From a virus, in UHGV virus genome UHGV-0289470: a stretch of 28,488 bases of DNA; one strand, given 5' to 3'. Under the pieces are notes generated by a model, which saw nothing but the letters and a program-made list of their open reading frames with translations, was not told the DNA's origin and made no database searches. Below, piece by piece: positions 3,909 to 23,967 of this stretch (positions are counted from its first letter, which is position 1; each line of letters opens with the position of its first letter). Made by a program: the position numbers and the translations under genes.

Positions 3909-4432
3909 CTATCAAATCAAATACGCCAGCGTCAGATAGGTATCGGCTTATTGAGGATTATCTGTATTTAGACGGAGATACAGTCAGATACAAAAAGGAC
4001 TCGCTAAAACACCCCAACCACAGCCACCGGGCAGGAGATGAAATTAAAACATCGATAAATGGATCTGGGTATAGACAGGTGTGTTTTGCAGGCATTCAGA
4101 TGTTTGTTCACGTAGTTGTTTTTGCGCTGCACAACAAAAGAATGCCATTGAAAAATATTGACCATATTAACGGAAACAGGCTGGACAATTCCCCAAAAAA
4201 TCTTAGGGAGGCAGGCCGGATAGCAAACAGCCGAAATCAGAAAACTAAGTGCAATAGCCGTTCTGGAATAAAAAATGTTTTATGGAACAAGCAAAAAAAT
4301 AAATGGGCCGTTCAAGTGCGCACAGATTTTGGCCGGTTGTATTTTGGGCTCTATGAAGATCTTGAACTTGCTTGTTTGGTTGCCAGTGAGGCTATCAACA
4401 AATATCACGGACAATATGCGAAGGTTGTATGA
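3905..4432 (+). CDS. HNH homing-type endonuclease with C-terminal AP2-like DNA-binding domain
   Basis: HNH motif ..NIDHINGNRLDNSPKNLR..; C-terminal segment KWAVQVRTDFGRLYFGLYEDLELACLVASEAINKYHG is typical of AP2 domains. ATG overlaps the ninB stop (ATGA). Confidence 0.7.
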   Translation: MTIKSNTPASDRYRLIEDYLYLDGDTVRYKKDSLKHPNHSHRAGDEIKTSINGSGYRQVCFAGIQMFVHVVVFALHNKRMPLKNIDHINGNRLDNSPKNLREAGRIANSRNQKTKCNSRSGIKNVLWNKQKNKWAVQVRTDFGRLYFGLYEDLELACLVASEAINKYHGQYAKVV

Positions 4433-4959
4433 TTAAGCATAAATCAGAAACACCAAAAGAAGTTAGAGACTGCTGGCAAACGCCGCTTTGGCTTTTTGAT
4501 GCACTGGATATTGAGTTTGGATTCTGGCTGGATTCGGCAGCGAGCGACAAAAATGCTCTGTGCGCTCACTGGTTAACTGAGGCCGACGACGCGCTAAATT
4601 CTGAGTGGATAAGCCACGGTGCAATCTGGAATAACCCACCGTACAGCAATATCAGGCCGTGGGTGGGAAAAGCCGCTGAGCAGTGCATACAACAGCGACA
4701 GACGATAGTGATGCTTGTGCCAGAGGATATGTCTGTCGGATGGTTCAGCAAGGCTCTGGAGAGTATTGACGAAGTTCGCATCATTACTGATGGACGGATT
4801 AATTTTATCGAACCATCGACAGGGCTGGAGAAGAAGGGAAACAGCAAAGGCTCAATGCTACTGATTTGGCGACCGTTCATCAGTCCTCGACGGATGTTTA
4901 CTACCGTATCCAAAGCGGCATTGATGGCGATCGGGCAGGGCGTCAGGAGGGCGGCATGA
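4429..4959 (+). CDS. phage DNA N6-adenine methyltransferase (Dam-like, NPPY motif)
   Basis: Motifs [15 protein letters not shown]...DSAAS...NPPYS are typical of the phage N-6-adenine-methyltransferase family. Start overlaps the HNH stop. Confidence 0.7.
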
Positions 4960-5138
4960 GGCGACAGCGACGAAGTATCACCGACATAATCTGTGAAAAC
5001 TGCAAATACCTTCCAACGAAACGCTCCAGAAATAAACGCAAGCCAATCCCAAAAGAATCTGACGTAAAAACCTTCAACTACACGGCTCACCTGTGGGATA
5101 TCCGGTGGCTTAGAGAACGTGCGAGGAAAACAAGGTGA
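4956..5138 (+). CDS. ninE: NinE
   Basis: Nested in ORF track entry 4866..5138. ATG 4956 with CAGGAGGG RBS. Product [52 protein letters not shown].. matches lambda NinE as recalled. Confidence 0.7.
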
Positions 5139-19354: not shown

Positions 19355-19710
19355 TGGCCCGTATCGGGGGAACCTGTTATTTCAAAATTGACGGTCAACA
19401 GCTATCGCTGACCGGCGGCATTGAGGTGCCCATGAACAGGACGGTTAATGATGACATCATCGGCCTGGACGGTTCAGTGGACCGCAAGGAAACTCACCGT
19501 GCACCTTATGTCAAAGGGACCTTCAAGGTGCCGAAGAATTTTCCGGTGAGCAAAATCACCTCGTCTGATGAGATGACCATCACTGCCGAGCTGGCGAACG
19601 GTCAGGTCTATGTACTGTCGTCTGCCTGGCTGCACGGCGAAGCGAACCATAATGCCGAAGAAGGTACGGTTGATCTTGAGTTCCACGGTGAAGAAGGGGA
19701 TTACCAGTAA
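19354..19710 (+). CDS. tail tube protein (Mu gpM-like)
   Basis: 118 aa, directly after the sheath gene. Confidence 0.75.
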   Translation: MARIGGTCYFKIDGQQLSLTGGIEVPMNRTVNDDIIGLDGSVDRKETHRAPYVKGTFKVPKNFPVSKITSSDEMTITAELANGQVYVLSSAWLHGEANHNAEEGTVDLEFHGEEGDYQ

Positions 19711-19979
19711 TGAAAGAGCTTGAGTTAAAGAAACCTATTACTGCTCATGGCGAGACACTCTCCGTACTTGAGTTTGATGAGCCAACCGGGAAAGATGTCC
19801 GCGAACTGGGGTATCCCTACCAGATGAATCAGGATGAGTCAGTCAGACTTCTGGCGCATGTGGTGTCGAAATACATTGTGCGGCTGGCGAAAGTGCCGCA
19901 AAGCTCTGTCGACCAGATGTCTCCGGCAGACCTGAATGCAGCGGCGTGGCTTGTGGCTGGTTTTTTCCTCCAGGCCTGA
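19710..19979 (+). CDS. tail assembly chaperone (G-like, short form)
   Basis: 89 aa, immediately upstream of the tape measure gene; contains a slippery site near its 3' end. Confidence 0.7.
   Translation: MKELELKKPITAHGETLSVLEFDEPTGKDVRELGYPYQMNQDESVRLLAHVVSKYIVRLAKVPQSSVDQMSPADLNAAAWLVAGFFLQA
19961..19967 (+). other. programmed -1 ribosomal frameshift slippery heptamer T_TTT_TTC
   Basis: In the chaperone frame the codons are ..GGT TTT TTC..; a -1 slip enters the 19946..20128 frame, which stays open to 20128. Confidence 0.55.
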
Positions 19980-20128
19980 CGGCTGAATACCTCACTGATC
20001 GCTTCTTTGACTGCGCCAGCTACTGGCGCATTAATCCCTTCGAATTGCTGAATATGCCGATCAGTGAAATTCCCTTGCTGGTCAGTCAGGCAAACAGGAT
20101 AGAGCAGGAGAAACGCACACATGGCTGA
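19961..20128 (+). CDS. -1 frame extension of the tail assembly chaperone (GT-like long form)
   Basis: ORF track 19946..20128, overlapping the 3' end of the chaperone; ends a few nt into the tape measure gene. Confidence 0.5.
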   Translation, partial: FFPPGLTAEYLTDRFFDCASYWRINPFELLNMPISEIPLLVSQANRIEQEKRTHG

Positions 20129-21953
20129 ATTTGAGCTTAAGGCGTTGATCACCGGTGTCGACAGGCTTTCTCCCGCGCTGTCGAAAATGCAAAAGAAAAT
20201 CCGGGGATTTAAACGCCAGGCGGAAGAAGCGTCACAGGGTGGGCTGGCGCTTGGTGGAGGACTGGCAGCGGGGCTGACGCTTTCCCTGAAATCTTATGCC
20301 GATCAGGAAAACGCCGCTACCGGGCTGAAAGTCGCCATGATGGATGCGAACGGCGAGGTTGGAAAGAGCTTTCAGGACATCAATAAACTGGCTATTGGCC
20401 TGGGTAACCAGCTACCCGGTACAACGGCTGATTTCCAGAACATGATGCAGATGCTGGTGCGTCAGGGGATCCCGGCAGAAAACATTCTGGGTGGTGTGGG
20501 TAAAGCGACAGCTTATCTTGCGGTACAACTGAAAAAAACACCGGAAGCGGCTGCTGAGTTTGCTGCAAAGATGCAGGATGCTACCGGAACGGCGTCAGAA
20601 GACATGATGGGGCTGTTCGACACTATCCAGAAGGCGTTTTATCTGGGCGTTGACGATACCAACATGTTGTCCTTCTTCACTAAAACCAGTTCTGTTCTGA
20701 AGATGGTGAACAAGGACGGTCTTCAGGCTGCACAGAGCCTTGCCCCCATCAGCGTCATGATGGATCAGATGGGGATGAACGGGGAGTCGGCAGGTAATGC
20801 CCTGCGAAAAGTTATCCAGTCCGGATTAAGTGTTAAGAAAATCAGGGACGTCAATAAAGTCATGGCCCGCCAGAAACTCGGGGTACAGCTCGATTTTACT
20901 GACGGCAAAGGAAGTTTTGGCGGTCTTGATAACATGTTCAGGCAACTGGCAAAGTTGCGAAAACTGACCGACGTTAAGCGAACAGGCGTACTTAAGGCAA
21001 TATTTGGTGATGATGCCGAAACCCTTCAGGTGGTCAATGCCCTGATCGATAAAGGAAAGGATGGTTACGATCAGATCCAGCAGAAGATGAATAAACAGGC
21101 CAGCCTGAATAAACGTGTTCAGGCACAGCTTGGTACGCTGTCCAACCTGTGGGAGGCAATGACGGGGACCGCAACTAACGGTCTTGCAGCTATTGGCGGC
21201 GCATTTTCTGGTGACGCTAAAAATATCACGCAATGGCTGGGGGAGTTGGGGGAAAAATTCACGAAGTTTGCGGATGAAAATCCCCGGGTTATTCGCGGCG
21301 TCGTCGGGCTTGCTGCCGGTCTTGCGATTCTGAAACTGGGATTGATGGGCGTGGGCAGTGCCATCAGTATTGTCAGCAGGATTATGTCGATGACGCCGAT
21401 TGGCATGATTGCGACGGCGATTGCTCTGGCTGCGGGATTAATTATCACTAACTGGGATGTTGTCGGACCTTATTTTAAGAAGCTCTGGGAAACCATTGGT
21501 CCTTATTTTGAGGCTGGCTGGGAACTTCTGAAGAAAGTTTTTGCCTGGTCGCCGCTGGGAATGGTGATCAATAACTGGGGACCGGTTGTTAAGTGGTTTC
21601 AGGATATGTGGGACAAGCTGAAGCCAATTATTGAGTGGTTTACCGACAGTTCCGGTGACACGGTCGATGCCATTAACTCTGCGCAGTGGGGCGCGGGTGC
21701 TTATGATGCTTATGGGACGGGAATACCGACGCGGGGATACACACCTTATCCGGCGGTGGATCCGGCTCAGTCAAACAACGCCTCCGATGCCACAGGCTCG
21801 AATCCCTTCATGATTAACAAAGCTTCTGTGCCAAAAGTTGATGGTGAGATCAAGGTATCTTTTGTGAATTCGCCTCCGGGTATGCGGGTTATGGAAACGC
21901 GATCCAGCGGTTTTGATGTCAGCCATGATGTTGGCTATACGCGGTTCAGGTAG
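20121..21953 (+). CDS. tail tape measure protein
   Basis: 610 aa, Ala/Gly-rich helical protein with transmembrane-like central segments, downstream of the chaperone pair. Confidence 0.85.
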   Translation: MAEFELKALITGVDRLSPALSKMQKKIRGFKRQAEEASQGGLALGGGLAAGLTLSLKSYADQENAATGLKVAMMDANGEVGKSFQDINKLAIGLGNQLPGTTADFQNMMQMLVRQGIPAENILGGVGKATAYLAVQLKKTPEAAAEFAAKMQDATGTASEDMMGLFDTIQKAFYLGVDDTNMLSFFTKTSSVLKMVNKDGLQAAQSLAPISVMMDQMGMNGESAGNALRKVIQSGLSVKKIRDVNKVMARQKLGVQLDFTDGKGSFGGLDNMFRQLAKLRKLTDVKRTGVLKAIFGDDAETLQVVNALIDKGKDGYDQIQQKMNKQASLNKRVQAQLGTLSNLWEAMTGTATNGLAAIGGAFSGDAKNITQWLGELGEKFTKFADENPRVIRGVVGLAAGLAILKLGLMGVGSAISIVSRIMSMTPIGMIATAIALAAGLIITNWDVVGPYFKKLWETIGPYFEAGWELLKKVFAWSPLGMVINNWGPVVKWFQDMWDKLKPIIEWFTDSSGDTVDAINSAQWGAGAYDAYGTGIPTRGYTPYPAVDPAQSNNASDATGSNPFMINKASVPKVDGEIKVSFVNSPPGMRVMETRSSGFDVSHDVGYTRFR

Positions 21954-22022: not shown

Positions 22023-22052
22023 CATTCCTTACAAATGATTGAAGGGATGATT

Positions 22053-22547
22053 ATGCGTATCTTTGTTTTTTTTATATCTGCACTTTTATCTTTTAACTTG
22101 GCTGCGGAAGAGTGTAAGTTCAGCTTTAATGAGTCAGAATTAATCTCTTCTATAGGTATTGCACCAGTTAAGCAAGAGATAATAAAGGATGAAGGAATAA
22201 CTAAGCGGCAATATGAATTCAGAAGAGAATTATCTTCTGAAGAAATGCTTAGTGATGACGCTGATGAAAAATATGAGCCGCAGTTTTATATATCTGTTTA
22301 TAATCCATCATGCCCACAAAAGGTTATTGTTTGGTTTTTCAAAGACAATAAAAACACAATGGATTTAAGTAATGAGGTCCTTGCTGGTAGAGCGTTCAAG
22401 TATTTAACTGGTGTTAATGAAAGTATTTTTGAAAATAAAATGAAAAAGTTTTTAAAGGTACAGTCATTTGAATCTTTTGATGAAAGGACAGATTCTAAAT
22501 TTATAAAGAGTGGTGATATTTATTCCATTGATGTTCAACTCAGATAG
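22053..22547 (+). CDS. moron-encoded secreted protein of unknown function (signal peptide, about 164 aa)
   Basis: ORF track 22035..22547; ATG 22053 after AAGGG. N-terminus MRIFVFFISALLSFNLAAEE is a typical Sec signal peptide. The ORF and its flanks are visibly AT-rich and the codon usage is A/T-biased, unlike neighbouring genes. Confidence 0.6.
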   Translation: MRIFVFFISALLSFNLAAEECKFSFNESELISSIGIAPVKQEIIKDEGITKRQYEFRRELSSEEMLSDDADEKYEPQFYISVYNPSCPQKVIVWFFKDNKNTMDLSNEVLAGRAFKYLTGVNESIFENKMKKFLKVQSFESFDERTDSKFIKSGDIYSIDVQLR

Positions 22548-22566: not shown

Positions 22567-22623
22567 CCCGCCACATCTTCTGCGATGTAAATAACTGACA
22601 AAGCAGATTTGGCGGGTTTTTTT
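22567..22623 (+). terminator. intrinsic terminator closing the moron
   Basis: CCCGCCA (22567-22573) / TGGCGGG (22610-22616) with a structured loop, then TTTTTTT (22617-22623). Confidence 0.45.
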
Positions 22624-22638
22624 GTATCCGGAGTTTAT

Positions 22639-23967
22639 ATGACGTGGAAAGACAGGCTTCAGGATGCGTCATTTCGCGGCGTACCGTTTAAGGTTGAAGA
22701 AGAAAGTGCGGGAACCGGTCGCCGTGTGGAAACACACGAATATCCGAACCGCGACAAGCCCTATACCGAAGATCTGGGAAAAGTCACTTTCCGCCCGTCC
22801 ATCACAGCTTATGTGGTGGGAGATGACTGCTTTGACCAGCGCGATCGCCTGATTGAAGCGCTGAATAAACCCGGTCCCGGCACGCTTGTCCACCCGACAT
22901 ATGGTGAGCTGAAAGTCTGTGTTGACGGGGAAGTTCGGGTCAGCACATCGAAAAGTGAAGGGCGTATTGTCCGCTTTGACCTGAAGTTTGTCGAAGCAGG
23001 AGAACTCTCTTACCCCACATCAGGTGCGGCGACGGCGCAAACGCTGATGTCATCCTGTTCTGCACTGGATGACTGCATCAGTGACAGCTTCAGCGGTTTC
23101 AGTATCGATGGTGTGGCGGATTTCGTGCAGAACGACGTCGTCGGTAATGCCAGCACAATGCTTGGGTATGTTTCTGATGCGATGAAAGTGGTGGATTCTG
23201 CCGTATCGGATGCCGCCAGGCTGTTGCAGGGGGATATCTCGGTACTTCTGCCGCCGCCATCGTCAGGCAAAAATTTCGTTGAGCAGGTGCAGAAAATGTG
23301 GCGTACCGGGAAACGCCTTTATGGTAACGCCAGCGACCTGGTCACCATGATAAAAACGCTTTCCGGTGTCAGCCTCGGCAGCGATCTGCAACCGCGCGGC
23401 GTCTGGAAAACGGACAGTAAAACCACCGCCACGGCGACGCAGCAGCGTAACGTGGTTGCCAGCACCCTTCGTACGACCGCAATCAGCGAAGCGGCGTATG
23501 CCGTCACCCGATTGCCTGCGCCAACAATTTCTGCGGTGATGCAGAATGCCGCAGTGGGGCAGGCAACAACACCCGCGCAGAGCACTGGCTGGCCTTCCGT
23601 CACGCATCCGGCACTGAACAATGCACCGGCGGTGAAAAACACGGTTGACCTGCCGACGTGGGAAGAACTGACTGACATTCGCGACACACTGAATACGGCA
23701 ATTGATAAGGAGTTGTCCCGTACAACCAGTGATGCGCTGTTTCTGGCGCTGCGCCGGGTGAAAGCAGATCTGAATGCGGATATCAACACGCGCCTTGAAC
23801 AGTCTGCACGGATCATTCAGCGCACGCCGGATGAGGTTTTACCCGCGCTGGTGCTGGCGGAGACCTGGTTTGATAACGCGGCGCGTGACGCGGACATTAT
23901 CCGGCGTAATGCCATTACACATCCCGGCTTTGTGCCGGTGATCCCTCTGAAGGTGCCAGTGCAATGA
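22639..23967 (+). CDS. DNA circularisation protein (Mu gpN-like)
   Basis: ORF track 22609..23967; ATG 22639 after CCGGAG. N-terminal motif ..ASFRGVPF.V...GRR...HEYP.RD.PY.EDLG.. is characteristic of the Mu N family. Confidence 0.75.
   Translation: MTWKDRLQDASFRGVPFKVEEESAGTGRRVETHEYPNRDKPYTEDLGKVTFRPSITAYVVGDDCFDQRDRLIEALNKPGPGTLVHPTYGELKVCVDGEVRVSTSKSEGRIVRFDLKFVEAGELSYPTSGAATAQTLMSSCSALDDCISDSFSGFSIDGVADFVQNDVVGNASTMLGYVSDAMKVVDSAVSDAARLLQGDISVLLPPPSSGKNFVEQVQKMWRTGKRLYGNASDLVTMIKTLSGVSLGSDLQPRGVWKTDSKTTATATQQRNVVASTLRTTAISEAAYAVTRLPAPTISAVMQNAAVGQATTPAQSTGWPSVTHPALNNAPAVKNTVDLPTWEELTDIRDTLNTAIDKELSRTTSDALFLALRRVKADLNADINTRLEQSARIIQRTPDEVLPALVLAETWFDNAARDADIIRRNAITHPGFVPVIPLKVPVQ

Follow-up and report, generated by a model that had tools for sequence, protein, structure and literature searches.

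The tail-assembly chaperone gene in the window (by which we mean the whole 28,488-nucleotide stretch of prophage DNA that was analyzed) very probably specifies two proteins with a common N-terminus: an 89-amino acid product of ordinary translation, and a long chaperone of 139 amino acids that would be made by programmed −1 ribosomal frameshifting at the heptamer T_TTT_TTC. From comparisons among related sequences, we consider the locus to be a real, ordinary and currently unannotated member of the tail-chaperone (G/GT) class of frameshift genes, of the type seen in gene E/E+E' of phage P2. A programmed −1 frameshift at this place was also the original prediction, and it is now supported by a selection pattern that is specific to the −1 frame, by the lack of any start codon for the extension in four diverged relatives, and by a slip site that all of 29 unique sequences have conserved.

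The window's DNA shows 98.4% identity to that of Shigella phage SfV. Of 5426 complete E. coli genomes, 1099 contain a similar stretch. The tail module is also found in three phages that convert the serotype of Shigella (SfV, SfI and SfII), in Salmonella phage ST64B, and in the Stx2e phage phiP27.

The chaperone locus and its slippery heptamer

The features of the locus and of its neighbors are listed in Table 1. The sheath gene, the leftmost of these, is described in the SfV record as 'similar to phage Mu GpL'. The chaperone ORF (19710–19979) matches the Pfam family PF10109 (Phage_TAC_7, with the description 'Phage tail assembly chaperone proteins, E, or 41 or 14') along residues 4–86, with an E-value of 1.9e-16 and a score of 60.3 bits against a cut-off of 25. 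It also belongs to phrog_166 (tail protein), and RefSeq names its 89-aa product 'phage tail assembly protein'. The gene sits between the tube and tape-measure genes, each of which was identified by both Pfam and PHROGs, and the stop codon of the tube gene overlaps the start of the chaperone gene (ATGA).

Table 1. Features at and around the chaperone locus, in window coordinates.
Feature	Position	Strand	Remarks
Tail sheath gene, 498 aa	17858..19354	+	PF04984/PF17482/PF17481, phrog_165
Tail tube gene, 118 aa	19354..19710	+	PF10618 Tail_tube (E=2.4e-33), phrog_185
Short chaperone product (G/E-like), 89 aa	19710..19979	+	Normal zero-frame translation; ORF list, Pfam, PHROGs
GTG, the ORF-caller 'start' of the 60-aa ORF 19946–20128	19946..19948	+	Frame −1 with respect to the chaperone ORF
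Slippery heptamer T_TTT_TTC	19961..19967	+	On (GG)T TTT TTC = Gly-Phe-Phe, codons 84–86
−1 frame extension (E'/T-like)	19967..20128	+	First new codon CCT 19967–19969; TGA 20126–20128
Local hairpin UGCGCCAG-CUA-CUGGCGCA, perfect 8 bp	20012..20030	+	44 nt 3' of heptamer; predicted fold
AGGAG Shine-Dalgarno of tape-measure gene	20106..20110	+	Inside extension CDS; 10 nt before ATG
Tape measure protein gene, 610 aa	20121..21953	+	PF10145, phrog_28/17727; first 8 nt overlap extension end
Mu N-like DNA-circulation/hub protein gene	22609..23967		Pfam, PHROGs

At its 3' end the chaperone ORF reads, in the zero frame, GCT GGT TTT TTC CTC CAG GCC TGA, with GGT beginning at position 19959, TTT at 19962 and TTC at 19965. 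The heptamer is in the correct X_XXY_YYZ phase, as tandem −1 slippage requires. From the heptamer onward the −1 frame contains no stop for 55 codons, and the TGA that ends it lies just inside the tape-measure gene, giving an overlap of 8 nt (ATGGCTGA). Joining the two frames as join(19710..19967,19967..20128) gives a predicted fusion protein of 139 aa, whose junction peptide spans …LVAGFFPPGLTAEY… / …LVAGFFPPGLTAEYLTDR. The extension has a PHROG match of its own (phrog_32181; E=6.5e-41). We established the heptamer, its phase and the two frames by reading the sequence directly and by recomputation. The original prediction had placed T_TTT_TTC inside the chaperone ORF, had the −1 frame open to a point just into the tape-measure gene, and had called the gene a tail-assembly chaperone; each of these statements holds, and all the coordinates it gave are correct to the base.

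We propose that most ribosomes would read the chaperone ORF to its zero-frame stop and release the 89-aa protein. A minority would slip, with tRNA-Phe on UUU in the P site and on UUC in the A site of U_UUU_UUC; both tRNAs would move back by one base onto UUU_UUU, and decoding would restart at CCU (19967), with 53 further codons up to the UGA. The resulting long form would consist of residues 1–86, in common with the short form, and a C-terminal domain that the short form lacks. In analogy to the lambda G/GT proteins, the N-terminal domain common to both forms would coat the tape measure protein, whose gene begins at 20121, and the extension would recruit the tube protein encoded directly upstream. 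Tail assembly would, on the same analogy, rely on a fixed and low ratio of long to short chaperone, with neither protein present in the virion.

Heptamers of the form XXXYYYZ occur in frame 29 times in the 8202 codons of the window's long ORFs (approximately 1 per 283 codons), and a run of at least 55 open codons in the −1 frame is available at only 4.6% of in-frame positions (median, 9 codons). Besides the chaperone heptamer, the sole member of this set with an equally long open −1 frame is G_GGA_AAC at position 4836, in a Dam methylase gene. By chance alone, a heptamer near the end of a gene together with a −1 frame that ends at the start of the next gene would be found with a probability of roughly 10^-3, a figure that leaves conservation out of account. 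Conservation among relatives settles the question of chance.

As the original prediction anticipated, the fusion has been missed by standard ORF calling: the records we inspected (RefSeq/PGAP, SfV and other phage records) give only the 89-aa protein, sometimes together with a 60-aa 'hypothetical protein'. The exact 139-aa sequence does occur in NCBI, as KDU22203.1 and KEL88680.1. There are four contigs that encode exactly these 139 aa; a single nucleotide inserted in their slip site (GGGTTTTTT or GGTTTTTTT) fuses the two frames in the DNA. We considered KDU22203.1 and KEL88680.1 as possible earlier annotations of the frameshift and rejected them, because the contigs that encode them carry this insertion. 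In the literature we searched, we found no description of the site in SfV, ST64B or phiP27; the survey by Xu et al. (2004) may list them.

Conservation of the slip site and of the −1 frame

The predicted fusion proteins of phages EPP-1, AH07, ST64B, phiP27 and YeP1 are 30–76% identical in sequence to that of the window. All five have TTTTTTC or TTTTTTT on Phe-Phe codons, at codon 84–89, followed by a −1 frame that is open for 54–55 codons and ends 8–11 nt inside the tape-measure gene. The zero-frame tail past Phe-Phe ranges from 3 to 22 residues among these phages, and is unconserved. To scan for the locus more widely we took one genome per species, which gave 38 loci. The pattern (a T6 or T7 run at codon 82–87, and a −1 extension of 52–61 codons) is intact in 33 of them, and in these the extension ends at the start of the tape-measure gene, with an 8-nt overlap in most relatives. 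In some loci the run is preceded by GG, creating an additional, overlapping heptamer, G_GGT_TTT. The intact loci are spread over many Enterobacterales and reach beyond them to Derxia, a Methylococcales MAG and uncultured proteobacteria. Of the five non-conforming loci, two match only in part, and the other three, from insect endosymbionts, look like decayed copies. A scan of viral contigs yielded near-identical copies only.

The motif NNT TTT TTY has no exception among the 29 unique sequences, a count that overstates the number of independent observations because the relatives share ancestry. The codon bearing X ends in T in every one of the 29, though the residue it encodes can be Gly, Asn, Arg or Ser; as background, GGT makes up 33% of the Gly codons in the window's structural genes. 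The XXY codon is likewise TTT in 29 of 29, compared to a background of 61%. Since the X codon always ends in T and XXY is always TTT despite this variation in residues, the heptamer is constrained at the nucleotide level, beyond what is needed to encode Gly-Phe-Phe. The two codons immediately 5' of the slip site are filled by 7 and 11 different codons among the 29 sequences, and this free synonymous turnover next to the heptamer means that enough time for change had passed. The length of the run is T6 in the SfV clade and T7 in the ST64B/phiP27 clade, with a maximum of 7 in the 29 unique relatives.

Substitutions 3' of the heptamer follow the −1 frame. Between the window and EPP-1, 27 of the 43 differences are at third positions of that frame, and the ratio of synonymous to nonsynonymous codon changes is 20:14 in the −1 frame versus 3:28 and 4:26 in the other two. 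The corresponding ratios between ST64B and phiP27 are 21:11 versus 3:31 and 1:33. The extension is thus under purifying selection specifically in the −1 frame, which is also the only one of the six frames that is open in all 15 diverse relatives. Searches with the extension against Pfam and NCBIfam matched no model, and a PDB sequence search with the extension or the fusion found no solved relative. A single-sequence AlphaFold model of the fusion had a mean pLDDT of 46.5 and was unusable.

In four phages (AH07, ST64B, phiP27 and YeP1) the stretch of the −1 frame that runs from its upstream stop to the heptamer is devoid of ATG, GTG and TTG codons. With no start codon for the extension in these four diverged relatives, it can be reached only by a change of frame. 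The nearest −1 stop before the heptamer is 7 codons away (in phiP27), and the nearest zero-frame stop after it is 3 codons away (in the SfV clade). The closeness of both stops places the frame change within an interval of about 10 codons, in which the T-run is the sole conserved slippery element.

These observations bear directly on the other ways in which the region might be read. The 60-aa ORF at 19946–20128 could be an independent small gene, translated from its own GTG without any fusion: it is called by the ORF caller, it has its own PHROG (phrog_32181), and it appears as a 'hypothetical protein' on about 1000 contigs, with a separate annotation in phage vB_EcoM-689R6. However, there is no Shine-Dalgarno-like sequence in the 20 nt upstream of the GTG (GCAGACCTGAATGCAGCGGC), which is probably not a real initiation site, and the extension is conserved in AH07, ST64B, phiP27 and YeP1 even though they have no start codon for it. 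Nor would a separate gene require the nucleotide-level constraint that is seen on the heptamer. We rejected independent initiation on the grounds that start codons are absent in the four diverged relatives, and we give almost no credence to a small gene of this kind. Less credible still is a coincidental overlap, or conservation caused by an antisense ORF (19829–20152, − strand) or by a nucleotide signal of the tape-measure gene. The antisense ORF is open for 107 aa in the window, the Shine-Dalgarno of the tape-measure gene is within the region, and the region includes a strongly conserved nucleotide stretch (TGCGCCAGCTACTGGCGC), but the antisense frame carries 1–5 stops in 11 of 14 relatives whereas no stop interrupts the extension frame in any of the 14, and the substitutions are distributed as they would be for a protein translated in the −1 frame of the + strand. 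Coincidence has an expectation of only about 10^-3 for the window alone. We rejected the 107-aa antisense ORF as a conserved entity because of its stops in those 11 relatives, and the combination of substitution pattern and frame openness effectively refutes this whole group of explanations.

A frame change could also occur during transcription, if RNA polymerase adds an extra U on the T6 run so that some mRNAs encode all 139 aa in a single frame. Such a one-U insertion would yield an identical product (…A-G-F-F-P-P…), so protein data cannot separate transcriptional slippage from ribosomal frameshifting. In favor of this route, the conserved element is a homopolymer in both clades. E. coli genes contain fewer UUUUUUU heptamers than expected, whichever of the three frames is examined, and this shortage has been credited in part to transcriptional slippage (Sharma et al., PMC4066793). 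The bare heptamer, moreover, is a weak ribosomal shifter in reporters (0.12%), and the +1 insertions seen at the DNA level in public assemblies are at exactly this run, so the run is slippage-prone for polymerases generally. On the other hand, the reports of efficient slippage by bacterial RNA polymerase concern runs of 9 A/T, and at T5C5 slippage is undetectable unless a context hairpin is present (PMC5009743), whereas the run here never exceeds 7 in the 29 unique relatives. Productive slippage is associated with a run of about 9 or more A/T, or with a shorter run that has an adjacent upstream hairpin (PMC5009743); the window has T6, and by inspection there is no hairpin directly 5' of it, the position being taken instead by a direct repeat, GTGGCT-TGTGGCT. 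The T6 run of P2, at the same position in the gene, is annotated as a −1 translational frameshift site. We therefore regard transcriptional slippage as quite improbable, and programmed −1 ribosomal frameshifting as the preferred reading.

Comparison with P2, lambda and Mu

The original prediction described the site as the conserved G/GT type of frameshift. Membership of that class stands, and the precise counterpart differs: the closest known system is gpE/gpE+E' of P2, rather than G/GT of lambda. P2 gpE+E' is produced by a −1 frameshift at T_TTT_TTG (Christie et al. 2002; Xu, Hendrix & Duda 2004, both as cited in PMC3091744). The P2 record gives E as 91 aa and E+E' as a joined CDS of 142 aa, with the −1 frameshift site in GGT TTT TTG; E+E' ends at 19857 and gene T starts at 19850 in that record, an overlap of 8 nt. 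[quoted passage not shown] No downstream RNA structure is reported for P2 and its relatives in PMC3091744, and the window likewise has no supported one. There are also differences. The P2 heptamer ends in G, placing Leu in the A site, whereas that of the window ends in C and that of the ST64B/phiP27 clade in T (Phe in both cases). The sheath, tube and DNA-circulation/hub genes of the window are Mu-like and not P2-like. Lastly, the P2 shift is annotated in its record and credited to experiment, whereas the window's shift is predicted.

Similarity to P2 at the protein level is below the reach of a pairwise search: the BLASTP match is insignificant (E=0.56). When a profile of 18 fusions was aligned to P2 E+E' using hhalign, the match extended over 119 columns with an E-value of 1.4e-5 and a probability of 80%, and it placed GFF on GFL. 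Taken separately, the two halves score 24.0 (N-terminal part) and 20.7 (extension, against P2 E'), compared to at most 12.7 for 30 shuffles of E'; the similarity of the extension is weak (E=6e-4, probability 29%). The profile comparison supports a probable homology to P2 gpE/gpE+E', to which both halves of the protein contribute, the extension as a candidate homolog of E'.

In lambda, gpG and gpGT arise through a −1 frameshift at G_GGA_AAG (Levin, Hendrix & Casjens 1993; Xu et al. 2013, 2014, as cited in PMC5009743). The lambda model, as outlined in PMC5009743, is that the G part binds the tape measure and the T part binds the tube protein, with neither in the virion. The window shares with lambda the location of the gene between the major tail protein and tape-measure genes and, by prediction, two products with a common N-terminus, the longer of which arises from low-level −1 slippage near the 3' end. 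It differs in its slippery sequence and in the tRNAs involved, which are Lys/Gly in lambda and Phe/Phe in the window. The lambda tail is non-contractile. In addition, T is a full-length downstream ORF and gpGT is much longer, whereas the extension in the window has only 53 residues.

Phage Mu presents a different case. Its gp41 is named in the PF10109 family, and Mu has the closest tail gene order to that of the window (gp38-like DUF2635, sheath L, tube M, chaperone, tape measure, DNA-circulation N, baseplate P). The sheath and other context genes of the window appear to make up a Mu-like contractile tail module. However, gp41 is reported to involve a −2 frameshift (Xu et al. 2004; Baranov et al. 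2006, as cited in PMC5009743); it is 144 aa long and has its extension in the +1/−2 frame, whereas in the window a classical heptamer leads into an extension in the −1 frame. A −2 frameshift of the Mu gp41 type is ruled out for the window by the frame of its extension. With a −1 frame on a classical heptamer, the recoding follows P2 and not Mu, within a tail that is otherwise Mu-like.

Stimulation, efficiency and meaning of the predicted frameshift

The original prediction had raised the matter of a downstream stimulatory structure, for which we found no support. The segment 3' of the heptamer (19968–20060) folds with a z-score of −1.29. A longer segment (19930–20130) has a z-score of −1.96 and includes a long-range stem beginning 6 nt past the heptamer. 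In an RNAalifold analysis of 16 clade-A sequences the long-range stem was lost, and the covariation term was −0.05 kcal/mol. The same 16-sequence alignment contained no conserved structure at the usual spacing of 5–9 nt. The local hairpin (Table 1) is 44 nt downstream, and is therefore too distant for a classical stimulator. Its base pairs are either invariant or broken among the 16 sequences, and never compensated. It coincides with the most conserved peptide, C-A-S-Y-W-R, and is probably incidental to the codons for these residues. By inspection, there is no Shine-Dalgarno-like GGAG, GAGG or AGGA sequence 5' of the heptamer. An Rfam scan of positions 19700–20300 (E≤1) returned just a sub-threshold match to a CRISPR repeat, on the other strand. 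We rejected a stimulated −1 signal of the dnaX, IS3 or IS911 type, because there is neither a conserved hairpin or pseudoknot 5–9 nt on the 3' side in the 16-sequence alignment nor, by inspection, a Shine-Dalgarno-like element 6–17 nt on the 5' side.

Reporter experiments in E. coli indicate what heptamers of this kind can do. In a neutral reporter, UUUUUUC shifts at 0.121% without a stimulator, and it shifts at 7.6% with the IS3 pseudoknot (Sharma et al., PMC4066793 Table S3). With UUUUUUU these values rise to 0.326% and 10.2%, and with the UUUUUUG of P2 they are 0.118% and 0.77% (PMC4066793). The H_HHU_UUY class, to which U_UUU_UUC belongs, is among the most efficient motifs in E. coli, and both U_UUU_UUC and U_UUU_UUU are shift-prone by experiment in that species (PMC4066793). 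A passage in PMC5009743 reports the P2-type shift as 2–3 fold more efficient than lambda's ratio of 30:1. If shifting at an SfV-type site is truly at the percent level, then it must have a driver other than the bare heptamer and the canonical elements. Candidates for such a driver would be the conserved hydrophobic nascent peptide (…W-L-V-A-G-F-F), the invariant hairpin 44 nt downstream, which might act from afar or by way of ribosome queueing, and slippage of RNA polymerase on T6/T7. That the chaperone family depends on a frameshift stimulator of an unrecognized kind is an idea we mention as a rather unlikely one. The efficiency of the shift in its natural context is the only part of the locus with a potential for novelty.

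For the rest, the biology holds no surprise for a phage specialist. The omission in annotation is systematic, and an entry join(19710..19967,19967..20128), flagged as ribosomal slippage, would mend it and would remove a false small gene. The conserved loci also make a clean comparative set on which to train frameshift predictors, with the clades T6-C and T7-A and a range from enterobacteria to Methylococcales. The predicted frameshift would mean that a tail of the Mu-like kind can rely on a −1 shift of the P2 type, instead of the −2 frameshift of Mu.

Slip sites and short forms in two clades

We compared the chaperone loci of two clades: an SfV-like clade (the window and related loci L003, L004 and L009-L027) and an ST64B/phiP27-like clade (L005, L006 and L028-L039). 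The long form, the predicted −1 fusion of the chaperone to its extension, is conserved across both. In the SfV-like clade the slip site is T6 followed by C and the zero-frame tail is 3-14 residues long, whereas in the ST64B/phiP27-like clade it is T7 followed by A and the tail is 15-26 residues long and acidic or Ser/Thr-rich (for example, …SETEEDSESGSTTPHTSGE). Because these tails are unlike each other, the short form differs considerably between the clades. In the Salmonella prophage ST64B (L005 region), the gene with the predicted programmed frameshift is sb15; a mutation in ST64B is described in the literature, and the sb15 frameshift might have been mistaken for it.

Within the extension, we found a stretch (TTTGAYTGCGCCAGCTACTGGCGCAT) whose nucleotides are nearly invariant among 16 diverged clade-A relatives in alignment A2. 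Synonymous positions are also kept: Cys is always encoded by TGC, and Ala by GCC in 14 of the 16 sequences. The stretch forms a perfect 8-bp hairpin. Its conservation may reflect constraint on the peptide C-A-S-Y-W-R together with codon preference, an explanation that leaves the freeze at synonymous sites unaccounted for.

Slip-site insertions and decayed loci

Four public contigs contain one extra nucleotide precisely at the slip site, reading GGGTTTTTT in two of them and GGTTTTTTT in the other two. The insertion joins the chaperone and extension frames at the DNA level, so the 139-aa long form would be the sole product encoded by these contigs. Either sequencing errors at the homopolymer or genuine mutations explain them, and true mutants would be expected to be tail-defective because the short form is absent.

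Three copies of the chaperone locus in insect-endosymbiont genomes are apparently decayed. In a Candidatus Pantoea bathycoeliae MAG (L040), the phases are swapped by the loss of one base immediately 5' of the T7 run. In two Arsenophonus endosymbiont loci (L043 and L046) the ORFs are truncated or shifted. Such decay fits the erosion of prophages in genomes undergoing reduction.

Coordinates of the features discussed
Feature	Position	Strand	Context
Dam-family gene	4429-4959	+	
G_GGA_AAC heptamer, in frame	4836-4842	+	inside gene 4429-4959
90-aa ORF	4866-5138		−1 frame of heptamer
Conserved stretch	20007-20031		alignment A2 columns 53-77
170-aa ORF	22035-22547	+	between tape measure and DNA-circulation/hub genes; RefSeq: hypothetical protein
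Slip-site insertions	~850-860 in contig (window 19959-19967)		L129 JOQY01000022; L130 JNMR01000055; L131 SRR21472822; L132 ERR1302121

A second heptamer and a low-GC ORF

Besides the chaperone slip site, just one heptamer in the window, G_GGA_AAC, opens into a long −1 frame (100 codons, including the 90-aa ORF). It lies in a gene for a Dam-family DNA adenine methyltransferase (PF05869), and Sharma et al. (PMC4066793) graded this motif as having low efficiency.

The 170-aa ORF lies in a sharp trough in GC content (31-34%, versus about 53% in its flanks). Pfam searches gave no match for it; its hydrophobic N-terminus (MRIFVFFISALLSFNLAAEE…) resembles a signal peptide. Among 5426 complete E. coli genomes, the flanks were matched in 598 and the full insertion in only 84. 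The ORF looks like a moron, a cargo gene within the tail operon.
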